This document shows positions 1,137 to 14,077 of a DNA stretch of 20,907 bases, piece after piece. The DNA comes from Thermodesulfobacteriota bacterium (GTDB taxonomy: Bacteria > Desulfobacterota > Desulfobacteria > Desulfobacterales > SURF-7): assembly GCA_049320885.1 (NCBI GenBank), contig JBMORA010000026.1:1-20907 (forward strand). Direction: 5' to 3'. Both the position numbers and the translations under genes were made by a program. Each line of letters starts with the position of its first letter. Positions within the stretch are counted from its first letter, which is position 1. A model generated the notes under the pieces. It was given only the letters and a program-made list of their open reading frames with translations, did no database searches and was not told the DNA's origin.

Positions 1137-1202
1137 TCGACCGACGCGGGAGCCGGATCAATCCAACACGCTCCGGATTCGGATTTTGTTTTGATGCGTC
1201 CA

Positions 1203-1256
1203 TGCTTATATATTGTAATATTTGAATTGACAATCCACAACATTTTGTGGTATGCA
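1203..1256 (+). promoter_or_regulatory. sigma70 promoter (TTGACA 1227-1232; extended -10 TGnTATGCA 1248-1256) overlapped by tandem NrdR-like boxes (1203-1218, 1235-1250)
   Basis: Perfect -35 with an 18-bp spacer. The 16-bp near-palindrome CCACAACATTTTGTGG matches the NrdR consensus acaCwAtATaTwGtgt, and a weaker box TGCTTATATATTGTAA starts 32 bp upstream. Confidence 0.6.
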
Positions 1257-1312
1257 GCCCCCAAATTTCGTTCCATCTTCCTTTCTTCGCTGAGCAGACA
1301 ACCGGGGCGGGT

Positions 1313-1543
1313 ATGTACGAGAAAACGGAAAGACGTTTTGTTGGCGAGCGCAGATCCGGCAGAGAAAGACGTACGGGAGGGACTTTGGATCCGGAGGCCG
1401 TGCCGGAGCAGACCGAGCCGGATCCCAGGCTTTTTTTCAACCGCTATCGCTTCATCGTCCACAAGGCGCTGGATGAAATGGCCAGGCGCGACATCGAAAT
1501 CTCGAGACAGTCGGCCGGCATCCGGGATAAAGCGAATCCCTAG
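1313..1543 (+). CDS. small hypothetical protein (76 aa) with repeated ERR motif (ERRFVGERRSGRERRTGG)
   Basis: Shortened form of track ORF 1247..1543, using the ATG at 1313 downstream of the promoter and a G-rich SD. It fills the intergenic gap, and ERRxxxERR repeats are common in small deltaproteobacterial proteins. Confidence 0.55.
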   Translation: MYEKTERRFVGERRSGRERRTGGTLDPEAVPEQTEPDPRLFFNRYRFIVHKALDEMARRDIEISRQSAGIRDKANP

Positions 1544-1597
1544 CCGCCGACACTTCCGCTTTCCCCGGAAAAACGCCGGCGGCGCTCAGGATGCCGC

Positions 1598-2812
1598 CTA
1601 TTTGCGGTTTCCCACCATTTCCAGAAACGCCTCAATGCGGGTTTTGATCTGTCCCTCGGTGAACTTGCGGTGATCGATACAATCCACCTCCAGGTTGAGC
1701 ACCGGAATGCCGATCTCCCGGAACCCATCCTCGATCATGCCGCGCGCGCCCGTTCCCTGGCGGCAGCCCCAGTTGCAAGGGTTGATGGCCCCGTCAATCC
1801 GATATTCCTCGGCCATTTTTTGAAGATGTCGGACCCGGTTCCGGATGCTTCCGTTGATCGGAATGGAGATGGAGCGCCTGGCAAGACCCTCGTAGATATG
1901 CGCCGTATCCACCGGCTCCCAGGTGATGTCGTTCAATTCATCTACGACGATCTTGGCCCCGTATTCCTGTTCCAGGAGTTTTTCGACCGGATTCTTGAAT
2001 TGAATGCGGTTCTGAACCCACAGCAACCTGAATTTTTCCCGGGCGGCCGCCTCCGTGATCCCTTGTCGCCGTTTTTTCAATTCGTCCCGGTAGGATTCCG
2101 CCACCCCGATCCCGGCCTCCGTTCCCAGGAACAGCGCCATGACCACCCCGAAATTGCTCAAATCCTTGCTGGTGACCGGCGACGGAATCTGTTTGGCCAA
2201 TTCATAGACCTCGATCATGATCTCCCGCGCCCGGTTGGTTTTTTCAACAGCATCGCGCAACCTGTCCGGGTTCAGGGGCAAGCCGGTGATCTCCGTCACG
2301 AAGTCCGCGAGGGAACGGATCTGTTCCGCCAGATAGTCCACGTTTTCCCGGCTTTCGTCCTGGGGGATGTTCAATACGAACATCCGTTTCCCGAAATGGG
2401 CGGCCAGATTCTCGATGACCGCCAGTCCGCCGGAGCACGGGGAAGTCGTTCCGATCAGGAATTCTGGTTTCGGCATCAACCCCTTGAGTGCGGCGCCGCT
2501 TACCGCGCGATGGTAGCTGCATGAATCCGAAGAATAGCCGATGTGCTCGGTTTGCTCGATGAAGTCGCCCACTCCTCCCGTGGAAGCCAGCATGGCACCG
2601 ATGAACTCGACGAAACAGGAAGTCACCTCCATGACGTTCAACAGGTCGAAGGGCGCGGTGATGCCGCACCAGGCGACTTTGTGTTGTCCGGAATACAACC
2701 GCTGCCCGAGCCGGGCCAGTTCCAGTGAGTACAGTTTTCGCGGGCTGCCCTTTCCGTCCGCAATGGCCTGCCGGAGTCCCGCTTCCAGGCCGTCAAAGTA
2801 TTCCTTCATCAT
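1598..2812 (-). CDS. 2-hydroxyacyl-CoA dehydratase / class I benzoyl-CoA reductase family, catalytic (HgdA/HadB/BzdO-like) subunit, 404 aa
   Basis: Motifs GYSSDSCSYHR, PKPEFLIGTTSPC, NPCNWGCRQG and GIPVLNLEVDCIDHRKFTEGQIKTRIEAFLE. Start moved to the ATG at 2812, 6 nt after GAGGTG. Confidence 0.88.
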   Translation of the reverse strand: MMKEYFDGLEAGLRQAIADGKGSPRKLYSLELARLGQRLYSGQHKVAWCGITAPFDLLNVMEVTSCFVEFIGAMLASTGGVGDFIEQTEHIGYSSDSCSYHRAVSGAALKGLMPKPEFLIGTTSPCSGGLAVIENLAAHFGKRMFVLNIPQDESRENVDYLAEQIRSLADFVTEITGLPLNPDRLRDAVEKTNRAREIMIEVYELAKQIPSPVTSKDLSNFGVVMALFLGTEAGIGVAESYRDELKKRRQGITEAAAREKFRLLWVQNRIQFKNPVEKLLEQEYGAKIVVDELNDITWEPVDTAHIYEGLARRSISIPINGSIRNRVRHLQKMAEEYRIDGAINPCNWGCRQGTGARGMIEDGFREIGIPVLNLEVDCIDHRKFTEGQIKTRIEAFLEMVGNRK

Positions 2813-2817
2813 GTCAT

Positions 2818-3873
2818 TCACCTCAGCATTTCCGTAAAGGCTTCGATTCTTGTTTTTTGCTGGCCCATGGAACGGACGGTGCAATCGCCTTCCAGCAGGA
2901 GGAAGGGCATGCCTTCGTCCTTCAACGCCGCCCGGATGACCGGTAACCGCGAAATATACGGATCGCAGAACTTGACCGTGTATCCGATCACCCCTTTGGC
3001 CTGATGATGCCGGGCGGCGGCAACGATGTCGCCGGCTATTTGGGCCGGTCGGGTCGCACTGATGGTGCGGGCGCAGGCCGGACGGCCGAGCAACCCGCGC
3101 GCATAATCCGCCAGCGGATCGCCGCCGTCATCCGCCCCCGCTGCGATCGGCGTGAACAGCCGCGAACCGGTGCAGAGGTCCTCCCCCACGATCCTGGCGC
3201 CGCAGGCGGCGAACAGGGCAAAGGCCTCCGCATCCGGCAGGACATTGCCGAAAAGGTAAATGGGCACGCTGTCGTCCGCCGGTTCCGCATCTTCCCGCGC
3301 CAGCAGCATTTCCAGATGATCGTGCATGGTTTCCGGCGGCGTGCAGGAGGCCCGCAGATACGCCTGTTGCAGCAGCAGGGCGCCTTCCCGCATCGCGCCG
3401 ATCCTCACCCTGGCCCGCACCCGTTCAAAATCGCCGGCCAGCCGATTGTACAGCCGAAGACTGCCGGCGATTTCATCGCGCCGCGGCATCCGGCCGCCCC
3501 ATTCCGCCAGAACACCTACCAGTTGTTGCAGTTTTACCTGGAAAAAAAAGATATCCCTCTCCGCGGCGGTGGCAGGCATGTCGACACAGACGGCGGGCAC
3601 ATCCGGCCGGGCCATCCGCCAGGCATCCGCCAGTCGCCGCATGGCGTCGCAACTGTTCATGAATACCATTCCCGCCATATCCGGCAGCCGGCCGCTCATG
3701 GCCCGGTCAAGAATCCGTTTGACATGCGGACAGAGGTTGTCATGCAGCAGTCGACCGGCCTGATCCGGACAATCGACATCCGGCAGGATTCGGTGGGGCA
3801 CGAAACCGGCCGCATGAATCAGCGCAAGCGGCGTATAGGCGCAGGCATATCCGACGACAGGTTGTTTTTCCAT
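2818..3873 (-). CDS. 2-hydroxyacyl-CoA dehydratase / benzoyl-CoA reductase family, second (HgdB/BzdN/DCCP-like) subunit, 351 aa, with six family-position Cys
   Basis: VGYACAYTP, HDNLCPHVK, MNSCDAMRRL, GEDLCTGSR, RPACAR, VKFCDPY and GQQKTRIEAFTEML; starts 2 nt after the MarR stop. Confidence 0.88.
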   Translation of the reverse strand: MEKQPVVGYACAYTPLALIHAAGFVPHRILPDVDCPDQAGRLLHDNLCPHVKRILDRAMSGRLPDMAGMVFMNSCDAMRRLADAWRMARPDVPAVCVDMPATAAERDIFFFQVKLQQLVGVLAEWGGRMPRRDEIAGSLRLYNRLAGDFERVRARVRIGAMREGALLLQQAYLRASCTPPETMHDHLEMLLAREDAEPADDSVPIYLFGNVLPDAEAFALFAACGARIVGEDLCTGSRLFTPIAAGADDGGDPLADYARGLLGRPACARTISATRPAQIAGDIVAAARHHQAKGVIGYTVKFCDPYISRLPVIRAALKDEGMPFLLLEGDCTVRSMGQQKTRIEAFTEMLR

Positions 3874-3875
3874 GG

Positions 3876-4364
3876 CTACATCATTCCTTTATTGGCGTTG
3901 GTCAATACTTTTCTGAGAACCTTGCGGGTGATTTCCAATTCACCCGGCTGAATTCCGGCAAAAGCCTCCTGCAGCATGCGATCCACAGCCTCGAAGACCT
4001 TGTCGCGGATCATGCCGCCCTTTTCCGTCAGGGTGACCTTCAGGGAACGGCGATCATGCGGGTCACTGGATCGCTGCACCAAGCCGTCCCGCTCCATGCG
4101 ATCGATGAGCCCTGTCATGGTGGACGGCTCGAGCCCGGCGCAGCGACTTAAATCCGTGAGCCTCATCCCGTCCTCGCTGCCGAGTTTGCTCAACATTTCG
4201 TCCAAGCCCTCCCCTGTCCACAAACACATCAGGACGCCCAAATAGGCGGGTTTGACTTCCGGAAGCCCACTGTCGGTCAGTTCTTTCTTCAGCACCGCGG
4301 TGGCGGACAACGAGGCCCGGGTAATCAGATAATACGGGCAATCAGCCGGAGTTTCGTATTTCAT
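3876..4364 (-). CDS. MarR family transcriptional regulator
   Basis: wHTH segment LTDLSRCAGLEPSTMTGLIDRMERDGLVQR and DRRSLKVTLTEKG; first gene of the dehydratase-family operon. Confidence 0.93.
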   Translation of the reverse strand: MKYETPADCPYYLITRASLSATAVLKKELTDSGLPEVKPAYLGVLMCLWTGEGLDEMLSKLGSEDGMRLTDLSRCAGLEPSTMTGLIDRMERDGLVQRSSDPHDRRSLKVTLTEKGGMIRDKVFEAVDRMLQEAFAGIQPGELEITRKVLRKVLTNANKGMM

Positions 4365-4399: not shown

Positions 4400-4467
4400 A
4401 TATTTTGCTACCAAATATTATGTATCAATAATTTTTGCAAGCAAAATTTTTACCCCCTTGCTATGAT
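4400..4467. promoter_or_regulatory. AT-rich divergent promoter region with candidate MarR operators
   Basis: Inverted repeats ATATTT-N7-AAATAT (4400-4418), ATTAT-N6-ATAAT (4417-4432) and TTTTGC-AA-GCAAAA (4433-4446). Extended -10 TGcTATGAT (4459-4467) points toward the kinase gene. Confidence 0.5.
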
Positions 4468-4576
4468 CCAATCCAACCTGGCTTTCGCTGCCGCCGACTT
4501 TTTGCTGTTTGCCTTTTCATTTCCAGCCATGTTATTTTCCAAAAAATCAACACAAACGTGGTAAAGGATGGTTTGC

Positions 4577-6850
4577 ATGCCCCCCGTTCCCATGTCCAAA
4601 GACATCTGTTGCCAGAACTTCAAGGGGCTGCTCGCCCATGTCCGAAAACATTACGGCGAAGAAGGCATTCGCACCCTGACCTCCGGGCTGCTGGACGGGC
4701 GGTATTTCATCCAGGACAAGTTCACCCCTTCCCGGGTCATTCCCATTCAGGAAGAACACCTGACCGACCCGGCCTACTGGGTGTCCAACGATTTTTCCCT
4801 GGCCCTGCTGGGCAATGTCAACAAGGTCGTGAAAGGACCGGATGCGCTCTTTACGGCCGGCAAGGAAATGGTCAAGGAAAATCTATCCAAAACCTCGCTC
4901 TTGTTTGCCAAATTCGTGGGACTCCGGGTGCTGGCCGGCAGGGCCGCCAATATCAACAGACGCTTCAACCGCACCAAGGACGTGAACCTGGTCAGGTTTC
5001 AGGAAGGATTGGCGGTATTCGAATTGAACTATAAATCCGGATTTCACGTCACCAAGGATGTTTGCAACTGGAACCTGGGCATTTACACCGGCATCACGGA
5101 ATTATCCGGCGCGTCCCGGATTGCCGGCCGGGAAACCGACTGTATTTTGGAAGGCGGCCGATGTTGCCGCTTTGAGATCACCTGGGATAACAAGAACACC
5201 CTATCCAGCATCCCCAGAGTCTTTTTTCATTGGGCCGGCCGCTGGATTGTGAAGGATCTGATCGCCGATTATGAAAAACTCCTGGACGAACGGGACAAGC
5301 TGATCGACAATCTCGGCAAATCGGAAAAAAAATACCGCGCCCTTTTCGAGGATTCCCAGGAAGCCCTGAGTTTGACCCACAACGGCCGGATCATCGATGT
5401 CAATCCGGCCTGGATGCGGCTGCACGGATATACCGAAAAAAGCGAAGCTGTCGGCAACGACATTCTCAAAACAGTTCACCCGGAAGACCGGACCACCTTC
5501 ACCCGACGCTACGAGAACCGCGCCGAAAACGAGGAAAGAATGTTTCAAATGCGGGAGATCACCCGTTCCGGCCAGGTTCTTGATGTGGAGGTCTATCTGA
5601 GCCGCATCGAATTCGACGGCAAGGAATCCGTGCTGACCATGGTCAAGGACGTTACCAGACAAAAACAGGCCGAGGAACATCGCCGTCAGCTGGAGGCAAA
5701 GCTGCAACGGGCGGAAAAAATGGAAACCATCGCCACCATGGCGGGAGGAGTGGCCCACGATCTGAACAATATCTTGTCCGGCATCGTGGGATATCCGGAA
5801 ATCATCATCATGCGCCTTCCGGAGGACAGCCCCCTTATCAAACCGCTTACCATCATGCACACCACCGCCAAAAAAGCCGCCGCCATCGTTCAGGACCTGC
5901 TGACCCTTTCCAGACGAGGCCTGATGAACTCGGACGTCTTCAACCTCAACCATACCATCCGTGAATATATCGAAAGCCCGGAATGTCAAAAATTGTTGTC
6001 GTATCATCCCGATGTGCGCATTGAAGCCGACCTGACTGAAGATCTGTGGAATACCAAGGGCTCTCCGGTGCATATCTACAAAACCATCATGAATCTGGTT
6101 TCAAACGCCGCCGAAGCCATGCCCGAAGGGGGAAGCGTCCGGATCAAGACCGGTAATTGCCGCATCGATCCCGCCAGCCGGGAGTCGGAAGAAGTCCAGG
6201 AAGGGAACTATTGCCTCGTCAGCGTTACCGACACCGGCGTCGGTATTGCCGAGGAAAACCGCTACCGGATCTTTGAGCCTTTCTATACGAAGAAAAAATT
6301 GGGCCGAAGCGGTACCGGTCTGGGCATGGCGGTTGTCTGGGGAACGGTGAAGGATCACGGGGGCCACATCCATGTGGAAAGCCAGCTCGGCAAGGGTTCG
6401 GAGATCAAGATGTATCTCCCAGCCACCGCTGAACGCCCGCCGGTCAACAAGGCCAAGGAAGGGCTCCGACATCTCCGGGGACACGGAGAAAAAATTCTCG
6501 TTGTCGACGATATGATCGAGCAGCGCGAAATCGCAACGGATATCCTCGCCTGCCTGGGATACCGGGCAGTCGCGGTTGCCAGCGGCGAGGAGGCCATCCG
6601 GTATCTGGAGACGAATGTCTGCGATCTGATCATCCTCGACATGATCATGGAGCCTGGAATCGACGGCCTGGAGACCTATCGCCGCATTGTCGAGAAACGG
6701 CCGGGCCAGAAAGCCATCATTGCCAGCGGGTATTCGGAAACGGAAACAATCAAGGAGGCTCAATCCCTGGGGGCGGGCCGCTTCGTGAAGAAGCCCTATA
6801 CCATGGAAACCATTGGACTTGAAATCCGCAGGGAACTGGAGCGGAAATAA
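4577..6850 (+). CDS. hybrid sensor histidine kinase: N-terminal V4R-like domain, coiled coil, PAS, HisKA, HATPase, REC
   Basis: V4R-type C-x22-E-x2-C-x7-C (DVCNWNLG...ETDCILEGGRCC); PAS (VNPAW...VHPED); H-box AGGVAHDLNNIL; N-box MNLVSNAAEAM; DTGVG, FEPFYT, GTGLGM; receiver VVDD...ILDMIM...KKPY. Start at 4577 chosen from the AAGGA SD (alternatives 4568 and 4592). Confidence 0.92.
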   Translation: MPPVPMSKDICCQNFKGLLAHVRKHYGEEGIRTLTSGLLDGRYFIQDKFTPSRVIPIQEEHLTDPAYWVSNDFSLALLGNVNKVVKGPDALFTAGKEMVKENLSKTSLLFAKFVGLRVLAGRAANINRRFNRTKDVNLVRFQEGLAVFELNYKSGFHVTKDVCNWNLGIYTGITELSGASRIAGRETDCILEGGRCCRFEITWDNKNTLSSIPRVFFHWAGRWIVKDLIADYEKLLDERDKLIDNLGKSEKKYRALFEDSQEALSLTHNGRIIDVNPAWMRLHGYTEKSEAVGNDILKTVHPEDRTTFTRRYENRAENEERMFQMREITRSGQVLDVEVYLSRIEFDGKESVLTMVKDVTRQKQAEEHRRQLEAKLQRAEKMETIATMAGGVAHDLNNILSGIVGYPEIIIMRLPEDSPLIKPLTIMHTTAKKAAAIVQDLLTLSRRGLMNSDVFNLNHTIREYIESPECQKLLSYHPDVRIEADLTEDLWNTKGSPVHIYKTIMNLVSNAAEAMPEGGSVRIKTGNCRIDPASRESEEVQEGNYCLVSVTDTGVGIAEENRYRIFEPFYTKKKLGRSGTGLGMAVVWGTVKDHGGHIHVESQLGKGSEIKMYLPATAERPPVNKAKEGLRHLRGHGEKILVVDDMIEQREIATDILACLGYRAVAVASGEEAIRYLETNVCDLIILDMIMEPGIDGLETYRRIVEKRPGQKAIIASGYSETETIKEAQSLGAGRFVKKPYTMETIGLEIRRELERK

Positions 6851-8459: not shown

Positions 8460-9617
8460 TTATACCGTCACCTCTTCCTTTACTCCCACTGCGATCTTGT
8501 ACAGGATCGTCAAAACCAGAAAACCTGCAGCCCAAACACCGATGGTGATAATGGCTTCCAGCAGGGTGGGAACATACTCGTTCACCTGATGAAAGGGGTT
8601 GGGAACGAATCCGCCGGAAATCAGCCCGAGTCCTTTGTCGATCCAGGCGCCGACAAACAGCATCGCGCAGGCCACGCCCAGGGTGGTTTCATTGGCGCGG
8701 GTGGCCGGATTCACCAGCAGGATAATGGCCACCACCATCAAGGCCATGGCCAGCCACATCCAGGGTACCAGGACCCCGTGGCCGTGAAGGCCGAAAAAGA
8801 GGTACTGGAGATGGGTCAGATGCTCGGGTATGTTGCTGTACATGGCCACGAAGACTTCGCAGACGAAGAAGAACACATTGGCGATCAGGGCGTAGGTGAC
8901 GATTTTGGCCACTGCCTGGATGGCTTCCTTGCCCGGATCGAATTTCGTGAACTTGCGGATGATGAAGCACAGCAAAATCAGGAACGCCGGTCCGGCGGCG
9001 AAGGCCGACGCCAGAAAGCGGGGCGCCAGGATGGCCGTAAGCCAGAATCCCCGTCCCGGGAGGCCGCAATACAACCAGGCGGTCACCGTATGAATGCCGA
9101 AAGCCCAGGGAATCGACAGGTAGATGAACGGCTTGATCCATTTGGGAGGCGCCACGCCGTTCCGTTCGGATTCGAGCACGATCCAGCCCACGAAAATGTT
9201 CAGAAACAGGTAGCCGTTCAGAACGATCATATCCCAGAACAGCATGGAACGGGGTGTGGGATACAGCAGCACATTCAGAGCGCGCATGGGCTGCCCCAGA
9301 TCGGCGATGATGAACATCAGGCACATGGAAATGGCCGAAACCGCCAGGAACTCGCCCAGGATGGTGATCTTGCCAAATTTCTTATAATTGTGCAGATAAT
9401 AGGGCAGCACCACCATGACGCCTCCGGCCGCTACACCGACCAGGAAAGTGAACTGGGCGATATAAAACCCCCAGGTCACGTCCCGGTTGAGACCGGTGAT
9501 TCCGAGACCGAATGTGAACTGCTTCAGATAAACCAGAAAACCGATGCCGGCAACGCCTGCCAGAGCCAGCACCAACAGCCAATATTTTTTGCTTCCTTTT
9601 ACCGCCAGTTCAAGCAT
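8460..9617 (-). CDS. dsrP: DsrP, NrfD/PsrC-family membrane subunit of the DsrMKJOP complex
   Basis: GLGITGLNRDVTWGFYIAQFTFLVGVAAG, ADLGQP, SIPWAFGIHTVTA, LAPRFLASAF, WIDKG; about 10 hydrophobic helices; last gene of the operon. Confidence 0.96.
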   Translation of the reverse strand: MLELAVKGSKKYWLLVLALAGVAGIGFLVYLKQFTFGLGITGLNRDVTWGFYIAQFTFLVGVAAGGVMVVLPYYLHNYKKFGKITILGEFLAVSAISMCLMFIIADLGQPMRALNVLLYPTPRSMLFWDMIVLNGYLFLNIFVGWIVLESERNGVAPPKWIKPFIYLSIPWAFGIHTVTAWLYCGLPGRGFWLTAILAPRFLASAFAAGPAFLILLCFIIRKFTKFDPGKEAIQAVAKIVTYALIANVFFFVCEVFVAMYSNIPEHLTHLQYLFFGLHGHGVLVPWMWLAMALMVVAIILLVNPATRANETTLGVACAMLFVGAWIDKGLGLISGGFVPNPFHQVNEYVPTLLEAIITIGVWAAGFLVLTILYKIAVGVKEEVTV

Positions 9618-9624
9618 GGTTACC

Positions 9625-10413
9625 TCACACGATGTAGTATACGGCCGGGCCGGTGCCCAGCGCGGGTTTCCGCCGGATGGTGAAATTTGTTTTCAACAGT
9701 TTACGGACGTCGGACGCCGGATCTTCCAGATCGCCGAAGGCGATGGCGCCGTTGGAGGCCTCGACGCAGGCCGGCATTTGGCCGACGGATAGTCTTTCCG
9801 CACAGAAATTGCATTTTTCGACCACGCCGCGCATGCGGGTTGGAAATTCGGGATCGATTTCCTTGATGAACGGCCGGGGATCCCTGAAATTAAAACTTCG
9901 GGAACCATAGGGGCATGCGGCCATGCAAAACCGGCAGCCGATGCAGCGGTGGAAATCCATGATGACGATGCCGTCTTCCCGTTTGAAGGTCGCCTTGGTG
10001 GGGCAGGCCCGGACACAGGAAGGATTTTCACAGTGATTGCACAGCACGAGAACCGGCAGTTGCTCGGAACGTTCATCGAGATACTTGCTTTCCAGATCCG
10101 GGAAGACATGCTTGTACTCTTCGTGCCAAATCCACTTGATTTCATGACGCACTTCTTCCATCTCCGGAACATTGTGCCGGGAATGGCAGGCCTTGATGAT
10201 CGGCTCCATGGCTTCGGCCTTATCCAGTTTGCGGGTGTCGATCACCATTCCCCATTGCGTGGCCGTGAGGGCCTTTTCCCCTCGATGGGTCTGAACCTGG
10301 GTTTCCGCTCCATGCTCGTTGGAAGAGGCGAAAACATCCAGCACCGGCTTTGATCCAATTCCGAGCGCGGTCAGGCCCGCTATTTTCAAAAAGCTTCTTC
10401 GGCTGTTTTCCAT
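9625..10413 (-). CDS. dsrO: DsrO, Tat-exported ferredoxin-like Fe-S subunit
   Basis: Tat motif SRRSFLK; CNHCENPSCVRAC, CIGCRFCMAAC, KCNFC...PAC. Start at 10413 (TAATG overlap with dsrJ; GGAGG SD). Confidence 0.95.
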   Translation of the reverse strand: MENSRRSFLKIAGLTALGIGSKPVLDVFASSNEHGAETQVQTHRGEKALTATQWGMVIDTRKLDKAEAMEPIIKACHSRHNVPEMEEVRHEIKWIWHEEYKHVFPDLESKYLDERSEQLPVLVLCNHCENPSCVRACPTKATFKREDGIVIMDFHRCIGCRFCMAACPYGSRSFNFRDPRPFIKEIDPEFPTRMRGVVEKCNFCAERLSVGQMPACVEASNGAIAFGDLEDPASDVRKLLKTNFTIRRKPALGTGPAVYYIV

Positions 10414-10800
10414 TACATCGCCTCCTTCGGTGCATTGTGGCAATCCCAGCAGTATGGTCTTACCGAAGCGTAATCATGGCATTTGTCGCAAAACTCGACT
10501 TTGCTGGTATGACATCCCATACAGGAATTTTCACCCGTGGAAAGGCTCATGTTGAATTCCTTCCCGTTGGTGCTTTTATACATCCGTTCGTCCGTCCGCA
10601 CGACGGTGTTCCGCCATTTGTCCAGGATCTGCATGTGTCCGGCCTTCATTTCCTCTTTCGGCAACACGCAATACCCCGCGGCCTTGGCCTTGGGGGCGAT
10701 CACCGGCTCGGGCGCCGGCGCGGCCTTGCCGAAATTGTACCAAAGCGGGGACAATATGATAACGGTGAAAACAACCAGTCCGGTGATGATCCATTTTTTA

Positions 10801-10808
<8 letters not shown>
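10413..10808 (-). CDS. dsrJ: DsrJ, triheme cytochrome c
   Basis: N-terminal membrane anchor; CVLPKEEMKAGHM; three CxxCH motifs (CMGCH, CDKCH, CWDCH). Start at 10808 after GGAGG. Confidence 0.96.
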
Positions 10809-12429
<1,621 letters not shown>

Positions 12430-12430
12430 A

Positions 12431-13471
12431 TTATTCTAGCTCCTTTTCAACAGGGAGTCCCGCTTCGATCATCTTCTCCCTGAAATCGTCTTCGTATTCT
12501 TCGTAAGTATGAACCTTGACCGGGTAATTCCAAGGATTGACATGCCGCCGCGCGCGGGTATCCGTGGTCAGATTGCGCGTGGGGCTCAGAAAAACCCCTC
12601 CCAGATGCATCAGCTTACTGAACGGGAAATACGCCAGCAGCACCGTGACTAAAAAAATATGGATGTAAAACAGACTGCCCACGGCGGCGGGAACAACCGG
12701 TTTCAAGGTCACCAACCCATGGGCAAGGGCCTTGATCGCCACGATGTCCGTCTTGACGACATACCGCATCATGATGCCGGTCAGGGCGATGGCCATGATC
12801 AGAAAGAGCGGGAAATAATCGGCCGCCAGGGAAAAATACCGGATCTTCGGGCTGAACACTCTCCGGAGGAACAGGAATATGACGGCGCCCAGCAACACCA
12901 GGCCGGACATGTAAATTCCGGGAAGCCCGACATCGATAAAATCGTAGAAGATTTCAATGCGGAAAAACCCGTCCAGATTTTCCAGGAGCTGAATCACCAT
13001 GGGCACCGGTTCAAAGAAAAAGCGCATATGCCGGAGGACCACCACGAGAAAGGAATAATGGAAAGCCAGGGCGAACACCCACAGCCAGATCTCCCACCGG
13101 TAAGTTATCCTGGTTCCCGCGCCCGTGTCCTTGAAGGCCATCTGGGTGTTGCGGAACAGCGAACGGAAACAGAGAATCTCCAGGATCATCCGCAGGATGA
13201 CGCCGCCCGTGGTGGTGGGGTTGTCGATTTTCGCATGCTTGATCCAGGGAAAGGATTTTTGTTGACCGCAGGTCGTGGGAATCCGGAAGGGGACCGGCGA
13301 ACTGGCCCAGCCCATCACCCGATAGATGAACGCCACGACAAACGTCAACACGGCTGCATACGGCAAAACAACACCGAACAAGGATTGCAGCCCTAACCAT
13401 TCCACCCCCACATAGGCGATCAAACATAGCGCTACAACAGCGATGAGGGAAAACAGATAGTGAACATTCAT
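12431..13471 (-). CDS. dsrM: DsrM, NarI-like diheme cytochrome b
   Basis: SPVPFRIPTTCGQQKS, FRSLFRN, AFHYSF...RH, FYIHIFLV..L..YFPFSKLMH and RARRHVNPWN. Confidence 0.97.
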   Translation of the reverse strand: MNVHYLFSLIAVVALCLIAYVGVEWLGLQSLFGVVLPYAAVLTFVVAFIYRVMGWASSPVPFRIPTTCGQQKSFPWIKHAKIDNPTTTGGVILRMILEILCFRSLFRNTQMAFKDTGAGTRITYRWEIWLWVFALAFHYSFLVVVLRHMRFFFEPVPMVIQLLENLDGFFRIEIFYDFIDVGLPGIYMSGLVLLGAVIFLFLRRVFSPKIRYFSLAADYFPLFLIMAIALTGIMMRYVVKTDIVAIKALAHGLVTLKPVVPAAVGSLFYIHIFLVTVLLAYFPFSKLMHLGGVFLSPTRNLTTDTRARRHVNPWNYPVKVHTYEEYEDDFREKMIEAGLPVEKELE

Positions 13472-13534
13472 CGACTCATACCTCTTTCTTCCGGCCCCCG
13501 GGTCAGGACCTGACCGCCGGCGGCCCGTTGCATA

Positions 13535-14077
13535 TTAGACGTTTGATTCCGCAAGCCCCGAATCTCCATCCGGGGTCTCCGTAAGTAATCCGGCACGTTT
13601 GAATGCTTTGTATACCTTGCTCTTCTCTTGATTCGCCTTGATATCGTACAGTCTTTCCCGGCAGCCCATATAGATATCAAAACCGAGCAGCATCAGCACA
13701 TCGATCTGCTCTTCCAATTCACCAAGGTCTTCTCCGACGGACAATGTCCGGTCCTGGTTTTTCACGAATTCACGGATGATTTTTTTCAGCGGCAGAATGA
13801 AACCGACGGCTTGTGAAGGGGAAAAATCCTGAACGGCACGAATCCGGATGACAGGGTCCAGAAAACGGATGACAGCTTCCCGCTCCGGCCCCCCGGCGAG
13901 TTCGTCGATGATCCCTTCCATACCCCGGATCAGGGAGTTTCCGACCGGATTGGCGAACGGATCCTTCTGGTTTTTTAAAAAACCGGCGGTTTCCAGCTGG
14001 TACGCATCGGCCACGACATCGAACCATTTTTTCAGGATGGCCGCCTTATGCTGTTTCACCAGTTCCCCGAGTCCCAT
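13535..14077 (-). CDS. dsrT: DsrT (RsbRD N-terminal domain protein)
   Basis: ILKKWF...Y..ETA.FL...KDPFANPVG, IRIRAVQDFSPSQAVGF and FDIYMGCRERLY; canonical position upstream of dsrM; GGAGG SD. Confidence 0.92.
   Translation of the reverse strand: MGLGELVKQHKAAILKKWFDVVADAYQLETAGFLKNQKDPFANPVGNSLIRGMEGIIDELAGGPEREAVIRFLDPVIRIRAVQDFSPSQAVGFILPLKKIIREFVKNQDRTLSVGEDLGELEEQIDVLMLLGFDIYMGCRERLYDIKANQEKSKVYKAFKRAGLLTETPDGDSGLAESNV

Follow-up and report, generated by a model that had tools for sequence, protein, structure and literature searches.

A MarR-linked cassette of Thermodesulfobacteriota encoding a BCR/HAD-family heterodimer with a predicted double-cubane subunit

A stretch of 20,907 nucleotides from a Thermodesulfobacteriota bacterium (assembly GCA_049320885.1, contig JBMORA010000026.1; hereafter the window) contains two adjacent genes that encode a small (beta) and a large (alpha) subunit of 351 and 404 residues. 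Both subunits pass the gathering score of PF06050 (HGD-D), with 176.3 and 240.5 bits against 28.4, and the two genes are members of the BCR/HAD radical enzyme family. The small subunit is strongly predicted to carry an [8Fe-9S] double cubane and its partner to carry a single [4Fe-4S] cluster. Our tentative preference for the pair is a radical enzyme of the dehydratase type, primed by ATP, which reuses its electron, borrows its activator and acts on a CoA thioester other than benzoyl-CoA.

The small subunit has cysteines at positions 11, 48, 75, 234, 267 and 303, with spacings of 37/27/159/33/36, just as the original prediction had read them, and five further cysteines. When the PDB is searched with the single sequence or with a profile, the six pair one to one with the cluster ligands of the double-cubane cluster protein (DCCP) and of BzdN. 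The [8Fe-9S] ligands of BzdN are Cys36, Cys73, Cys100, Cys263, Cys293 and Cys327, with spacings of 37/27/163/30/34, and its distal cubane is flanked by Arg53, Arg267, Arg290 and His330 (PMC11971306). R28, R238 and R264 are the counterparts of the three arginines, and Y306 stands in place of the histidine. Among the best 120 of 1329 small-subunit homologues, all six cysteines are present in 118, the two exceptions being gaps at C11, while R28 and R238 are each found in all 120. The alignment of C11, C234 and C267 with DCCP ligands, and their conservation, on which the original prediction had leaned, are therefore both borne out. From composition alone, the chance of finding cysteine at six given positions is about 1e-9. 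The small-subunit model (pLDDT 90.4) has a TM-score of 0.89 and a root-mean-square deviation (rmsd) of 2.6 Å to BzdN, with TM-scores of 0.85–0.88 to HadC and 0.81–0.83 to DCCP, and the alignment together with the likeness to BzdN suggests that the six cysteines converge on one cavity. Because these cysteines align with those of DCCP and BzdN, are conserved and belong to a BzdN-like model, an [8Fe-9S] double cubane in the small subunit is a strong prediction. The seventh cysteine of DCCP aligns with L30 and is thus missing. The original prediction had also held that ordinary HadC subunits keep only the equivalents of C48, C75 and C303; HadC has no equivalents of C11 and C234, as supposed, but it does have a cysteine at the C267 position.

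The large subunit has the three cluster cysteines C98 (DSCSY), C126 (TSPC) and C350 (WGCRQ) and the glutamate E69 (FVEF) noted for it earlier, and all four residues are invariant in 70 of 70 alpha orthologues. The cysteines are predicted to hold one [4Fe-4S] cluster with an open iron. E69 aligns with Glu65 of BzdO and with a glutamate of HadB and of MbdO, and is predicted to be a conserved acid/base. The positions of the second-cubane ligands of DCCP are occupied by G50, N294 and P318, so only one cluster is predicted in this subunit. Four further conserved cysteines (C49, with counterparts in MbdO and HgdA, C66, C346 and C378) are read as structural. The basic residues R25, K26 and R38 are conserved in the helix that matches the CoA-binding helix 15–32 of BzdO. 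By structure, the alpha model matches HadB best (PDB 3O3M; Z 43.6, rmsd 2.2, 379 residues aligned, versus Z 39.2, rmsd 2.5 and 378 residues for BzdO), a difference that weakly favours the dehydratase-type reading. Prediction of the beta–alpha complex gave a score of 0.91 (best control 0.00), with contacts agreeing by at least 96% between runs and a partner pLDDT of at least 91. Of 157 solved pairs 116 attain the mark used for this score, as do 2 of 215 mismatched ones, and a pass is possible through likeness to solved complexes. Cysteine alignment and complex score thus support a predicted heterodimer in which an [8Fe-9S] subunit is joined to a catalytic subunit with [4Fe-4S] and Glu, the architecture first proposed.

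Residues around the presumptive active site diverge from those of known enzymes. In an alignment with BzdO orthologues (about 20% identity), Ser44, Trp46, His131 and Tyr298 of BzdO, which line the site of the benzoyl ring and the Fe-water, correspond to I/V51, A/V/T53, G129 and L293; Tyr97 corresponds to Y100 (Tyr in 65 and Phe in 5 of the 70 orthologues), and N268 aligns with Gln274. A tyrosine occupies the L293 position in all 12 alpha subunits of a published alignment, as far as its garbled text is readable (SI Fig. 12, PMC11971306). Meanwhile, polar residues specific to the orthologues are invariant or nearly so (H101, Q267, N268, R269, Q271, E292, N294, W298, R351 and Q352). Sequence comparison thus points to a remodelled, polar pocket that differs from both known types, and the polarity suggests a polar acyl group.

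All NCBIfam equivalog cut-offs were missed by wide margins: the Bzd models TIGR03190/TIGR03191 scored 74.7 bits against 453.8 (BzdN) and 50.9 against 448.6 (BzdO), TIGR02260/TIGR02263 (BcrBC, MbdON) 62.2 against 486.55 and 63.9 against 421.15, the HadB and HadC models 91.2 against 750 and 79.9 against 700, and the DCCP model NF040772 92 against 350. Trees were built with BzdNO orthologues, one Fusobacterium HgdAB-type pair (a label based on gene order and on 438.7 bits for the HadB model, which is under its cut-off) and one DCCP; they contain no BcrBC, HadBC or FldBC, and the alpha tree omits 14 of 46 alpha rows. The small subunits fall into a long-stemmed clade with 100/100 support, separate from BzdN orthologues. 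The alpha tree unites BzdO, the HgdA-type sequence and five further alpha subunits with 99/98 support and places the window's clade (100/99) outside this group, among uncharacterised representatives. Grouping of the clade with BzdO was rejected in the approximately unbiased (AU) test (p-AU 0.00027), as was grouping with the HgdA-type sequence (see below); in these trees the pair does not cluster with a characterised enzyme, and the tight clustering with a characterised dehydratase that would have spoken against the original prediction is not seen.

The clade was found in 14 of 41 relatives (10 of 17 within the family) and in 8 of 301 genomes of the phylum. Among the matches listed, it also occurs in records titled Spirochaetota, Myxococcales, Bdellovibrionales and Nitrospirae, and the closest named relative is a metagenome-assembled genome (MAG) of Desulfosudis oleivorans (L059; 67% and 77% identity). 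Hosts include Syntrophaceae and Smithellaceae, and in two distant genomes (G340 and G343) the cassette is the sole PF06050 pair. Neither 79 loci nor 120 homologues nor 10 clusters included a cultured representative, with the best 80 of 481 loci covered, and the named records are all MAGs. A search of the ESM Atlas gave nothing beyond PF06050 clusters, and no paper on the clade was found in a literature search whose coverage mostly excluded subscription journals. Distant relatives (P0139, P0143, P0216, P0229, P0255 and P0169) include beta–alpha fusions and an alpha–activator fusion.

A six-cysteine small subunit is not, by itself, unusual. The window's genome (98% complete) has 15 PF06050 genes, comprising seven heterodimer pairs and one true DCCP (contigs C1, C9, C10, C26, C31 and C65), and the full set of six cysteines is kept by six of its seven small subunits. 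Elsewhere, the six were found in 31 of 47 sampled small subunits, or 29 of 45 without two DCCP-like rows; the sample was drawn from 52 small-subunit-like regions (judged by eye) of 8 genomes, after five alpha-like regions were dropped, and excludes the window's clade, fragments and the ten top-scoring DCCP-like rows. In several genomes the family counts 13 to 34 members, mostly with six cysteines. In a published alignment, ThncrN of culture N47 and the Archaeoglobus fulgidus 'HgdB' have six cysteines, against three in BcrC and MbrN, both subunits of reductases (SI Fig. 11, PMC11971306), and the authors of the BzdNO work call the double cubane archetypal or ancestral (PMC11971306). Since six cysteines are common, BcrC and MbrN have three and the Archaeoglobus protein has six, cluster content does not predict reaction type, and the step from six cysteines to a reductase in the original prediction finds no support. 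Both ThncrN and the Archaeoglobus protein are six-cysteine small subunits of sulfate reducers and lie outside the trees used here; ThncrN looks Bzd-type in that alignment (SI Fig. 11, PMC11971306). The Archaeoglobus protein, like the window's small subunit, has no N-terminal helix, but its pair resembles, by eye, the C9 paralogue of the genome and not the window's clade. It presumably takes part in phenyllactyl-CoA dehydration, which would speak for a dehydratase role of six-cysteine subunits.

Other members of the family in these genomes were also noted. One small-subunit-like PF06050 protein (L144; G063:C59:12360-13545) keeps none of the six cysteine positions. The true DCCP gene (471.7 bits; G000:C1:315847-319101) lies directly behind what by eye is a selB-like gene, and DCCPs have been linked to selenium genes (bioRxiv 2022.07.06.499078). 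Two related four-gene modules (G000:C10:2892-7212 and C31:2821-7012; L003, L004, L014 and L015) combine six-cysteine small subunits with very divergent 467-residue large subunits that have no NCBIfam match at 1e-25, and contain two activator genes each. Their gene layout makes these modules stronger contenders than the window's cassette for the role of a new stoichiometric reductase, in a genome without benzoyl-CoA ring cleavage.

In search of clues to the substrate, gene order was surveyed in 80 loci (79 and the window). The order marR–beta–alpha–activator recurs across the survey, with MarR in 44 of the 80 loci and no other gene conserved in position. In the window, the marR stop codon lies 2 nucleotides ahead of the beta start, and the alpha reading frame begins with ATG behind a ribosome-binding site, GAGGTG, that overlaps the beta stop. 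MarR has an N-terminal cysteine, Cys9, that all 39 of the aligned orthologues share (39 of the 44 were used). It meets the cysteine of a protein of this genome, which we take to be OhrR-like, only with a two-residue gap in the alignment, and a PDB search with the MarR profile returned generic MarR matches (CouR-like, OhrR) with alignments not reaching Cys9. The window's MarR and those of four close relatives have a 13-residue insertion behind helix 2, which is missing in the other 34 aligned. An 18-bp palindrome with the consensus TATTACGTATACGTAATA lies upstream of marR across the clade, at the promoter, and TTGACA stands just upstream of it in many relatives. All 34 upstream regions longer than 100 nucleotides score above the 95th percentile of shuffles, with a matrix trained on the same regions; the window's site, which scores 16.6 bits against a matrix built without the window, is one of the most degenerate copies. 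To judge from these sequences, the palindrome is likely the MarR operator, and MarR is likely the autorepressor of the cassette. The promoter assigned by eye (Table 1) was not recovered in a sigma-70 promoter scan, which gave two sites on the opposite strand, at chance level. A genome-wide search with the palindrome matrix gave 101 sites above 11 bits, with the window's site ninth and no clear co-regulated gene. MarR sensors with an N-terminal cysteine answer peroxides and electrophiles, and other MarR proteins answer CoA esters (PMC10458429); with precedents both ways, Cys9 does not decide the enzyme's reaction.

Where an activator gene accompanies the pair, it is a single acyl-CoA dehydratase activase, above the TIGR00241 cut-off and below those of BzdQ, BcrA and BcrD. 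It is adjacent in 34 and absent in 32 of 66 informative loci and untestable in four; its presence requires 15 changes on the tree, of which at least 8 are forced by well-supported branches. In the window, neither an activator nor a remnant was found in the stretch past the alpha stop codon or elsewhere on the contig, and the genome's best activator match reaches 292 bits, versus 438–485 for the sequences that built the profile. Across 34 genomes (20 of them picked because their locus lacks an activator), an activator at clade level was found in six, adjacent in five, and none anywhere in 28. By comparison, two activator genes lie directly downstream in 7 of 12 BzdO-type loci, most of the other five ending too early. 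Four modules of the window's genome lack an adjacent activator, which suggests a shared activator pool.

These observations can be joined into a working scheme for the dehydratase-type reading. An inducer would act on MarR, possibly via the invariant Cys9, releasing the palindrome and allowing transcription of marR–beta–alpha. A homodimeric ASKHA ATPase, here a paralogue encoded elsewhere (the best candidate being on contig C9), would feed a low-potential electron into the double cubane, which likely stores the catalytic electron. The electron would move on to the three-cysteine [4Fe-4S] cluster of the large subunit and convert the thioester into a ketyl radical; the substituent at C2, OH or a similar leaving group, would then be eliminated with E69 as acid/base, and the electron would return to the double cubane, permitting many turnovers per ATP-driven activation. 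The enoyl-CoA product would enter general beta-oxidation, so that no pathway genes need travel with the cassette. Dehydratases recycle one electron over at least 1000 turnovers per ATP (PMC8473912, PMC7771511), and a borrowed activator would therefore be tolerated. Class I reductases consume one ATP per electron, probably a costly rate for syntrophic hosts such as Syntrophaceae and Smithellaceae. With a co-induced ATPase repeatedly shed, no donor genes and syntrophs among the hosts, the dehydratase-type reading fits slightly better.

Several observations pull the other way. The two [8Fe-9S] proteins with solved structures, DCCP and BzdN, both act as reductases (PMC7317905, PMC11971306), and three clostridial dehydratase small subunits lack the equivalents of C11 and C234 in the published alignment (PMC11971306). 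The large subunit has neither the serine of HgdA, HadB and BzdO (I/V at position 51) nor the tyrosine common to the 12 published alpha subunits (L293), and with both absent the standard 2-hydroxyacyl pocket is gone. The AU test rejects grouping of the clade with the single HgdA-type sequence (p-AU 0.00016). MarR proteins with an N-terminal cysteine often sense oxidants or electrophiles, which would suit reductive detoxification, and borrowing of an activator is not specific to the cassette, as the genome's true DCCP and two other pairs likewise lack an adjacent one.

It is also possible, and ranks close behind, that the pair is a stoichiometric ATP-driven two-electron reductase, BzdNO-like, which acts on a non-benzoyl CoA ester or electrophile, with the double cubane gathering two electrons and the cysteine-bearing MarR inducing a detoxification. 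The predicted cluster set is that of BzdNO, down to the equivalents of Arg53, Arg267 and Arg290 near the distal cubane, and the BzdN cluster takes at least two electrons (PMC11971306); DCCP, itself a reductase, is also served by a homodimeric ATPase (PMC7317905). N268 at Gln274, Y100 at Tyr97, the invariant Cys9 and a cassette that is free-standing, and the only PF06050 pair in G340 and G343, would suit such an enzyme as well. However, about half of the loci have lost the co-induced activator, no ferredoxin or other donor gene recurs beside the cassette, six cysteines are the common state, and the match of Cys9 to the OhrR-like cysteine is the gapped one described above. A broader reading, which we consider unlikely, is that the clade represents a third, independently evolved branch of BCR/HAD heterodimers, with an [8Fe-9S] store, a polar pocket without the universal tyrosine, a thiol-gated MarR, a new radical reaction (for example, reductive C–O, C–N, C–S or C–halogen cleavage of a polar thioester) and an activator shared among many paralogues.

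Less probable again is that one of the clusters carries out small-molecule or sulfur chemistry independent of CoA, or that the cassette is decaying and became inactive when its activator was lost. DCCP reduces acetylene (PMC7317905), TudS is a precedent for sulfur chemistry on this fold, no CoA-ester enzyme has similar pocket residues and the window's palindrome is degenerate; yet both reading frames are intact with all invariant residues present, activator-less copies persist in many lineages and the CoA-binding helix keeps its basic residues. The least probable alternative, and a highly improbable one, is that this sulfate reducer has here a class I reductase that dearomatises aryl-CoA (benzoyl-type). 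The cluster ligands and glutamate do match BzdNO, and class I-type aryl-CoA reductases are reported from the sulfate reducers N47 and NaphS2 (PMC12016498), but the missed BzdN and BzdO cut-offs, the rejected grouping with BzdO and the loss of Ser44, Trp46, His131 and Tyr298 all argue against it. The ring-cleavage models Dch (106.9 bits against 292.5) and Oah (110.9 against 464.45) stay below their cut-offs throughout the nearly complete genome, and Oah exceeds its cut-off in 13 of 38 clade-carrying genomes and in 0 of 11 within the family, several genomes being incomplete. The original prediction had taken class II enzymes as the norm in sulfate reducers, and from this had raised the prospect of new chemistry; that argument is not supported, given N47 and NaphS2, the 8 of 301 phylum genomes in which the BzdO cut-off is passed and the failure to find ring-cleavage genes here. 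As to class II BamB, the genome has four AOR-family genes; the two scanned gave no specific match, and no bam-like neighbours were seen by eye.

Compared with characterised systems, the pair shares features with each of three enzymes. BzdNO of Aromatoleum sp. CIB (PDB 8S02; PMC11971306) has a six-cysteine small subunit with the same ligand spacing and three second-shell arginines, and a three-cysteine catalytic subunit with the equivalents of Glu65 and Tyr97; the small subunits are, however, only about 24% identical, the cassette has a single activator or none instead of BzdPQ, and it has no ring-cleavage pathway. HadBC/HadI and other (R)-2-hydroxyacyl-CoA dehydratases, too, are heterodimers with three cysteines and a glutamate and a single homodimeric activase (absent from the window's locus), but differ in having one cluster in the small subunit, where the window's protein has six cysteines, and in keeping the active-site serine and tyrosine. 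DCCP/DCCP-R of Carboxydothermus hydrogenoformans (PDB 6ENO, 7YYL; NF040772) has the six cluster cysteines and a homodimeric ASKHA ATPase, and DCCP is the best single-sequence PDB match for both window subunits. Unlike the window's protein, it is a homodimer with a seventh cysteine and an N-terminal lid and without a three-cysteine partner.

Table 1. Features of the cassette and its flanks in the window
Feature	Position	Strand	Remarks
Small (beta) subunit	2818..3873	-	351 aa, PF06050, six Cys
Large (alpha) catalytic subunit	1598..2812	-	404 aa, PF06050
MarR-family regulator	3876..4364	-	162 aa; likely cassette autorepressor
Degenerate copy of the 18-bp palindrome, likely MarR operator	4416..4433	.	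Matrix score 16.6 bits
Likely sigma-70-type promoter	4415..4444	-	By eye: TTGCTT, 18 nt, TAATAT; overlaps palindrome
Stretch past alpha stop, site of ATPase activator gene in 34 relatives	1137..1597	.	No activator or remnant here

Beyond the cassette, the nearest flanking genes vary between the 80 loci. Generic two-component proteins recur in 20 of them at variable positions, and acyl-CoA dehydrogenase-like and AMP-ligase-like reading frames (both labels assigned by eye) were seen in 6 and 5 loci, respectively. Across the 80 loci, no electron-donor (ferredoxin) or pathway gene recurs beside the cassette, and no CoA-transferase or dehydrogenase is conserved there. In the window, a small reading frame at 1247-1543, which contains an ERRSGRERR motif and matches neither Pfam nor NCBIfam models, runs convergent with the cassette, in the place of the relatives' activator. 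On the other side, at 4568-6850, a hybrid histidine kinase is divergent from the cassette and has an N-terminal region of about 250 residues without a Pfam match ahead of its PAS domain; it is not kept beside the cassette in other loci. A complete dsrMKJOP operon at 8460-14077, all five genes of which exceed their NCBIfam cut-offs, marks the host as a sulfate reducer. The operon is preceded by an RsbRD_N-domain gene and is unlinked to the cassette; a link between the two was considered and rejected, as DsrK occurs in only 2 of 80 loci. The genome also has six glycyl radical enzyme genes (contigs C9, C17, C25, C28, C46 and C53).

The cluster prediction alone is unsurprising after the 2025 structure of BzdNO, from which the architecture is known; the MarR repressor, the palindrome and the lost activator are additions to the original prediction. 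To our knowledge, there is only one double-cubane heterodimer whose reaction is known. The clade offers a tractable entry, with its own repressor and palindrome as a route to the inducer, a cognate activator in relatives and natural activator-less versions, and it permits a direct test of whether an [8Fe-9S] subunit always means a reductase or serves a dehydratase as well, and of whether activators are shared. If the clade does prove to be a third branch of the family, the double cubane would count as a routine cofactor in Desulfobacterota, where about two thirds of the small subunits would contain it.

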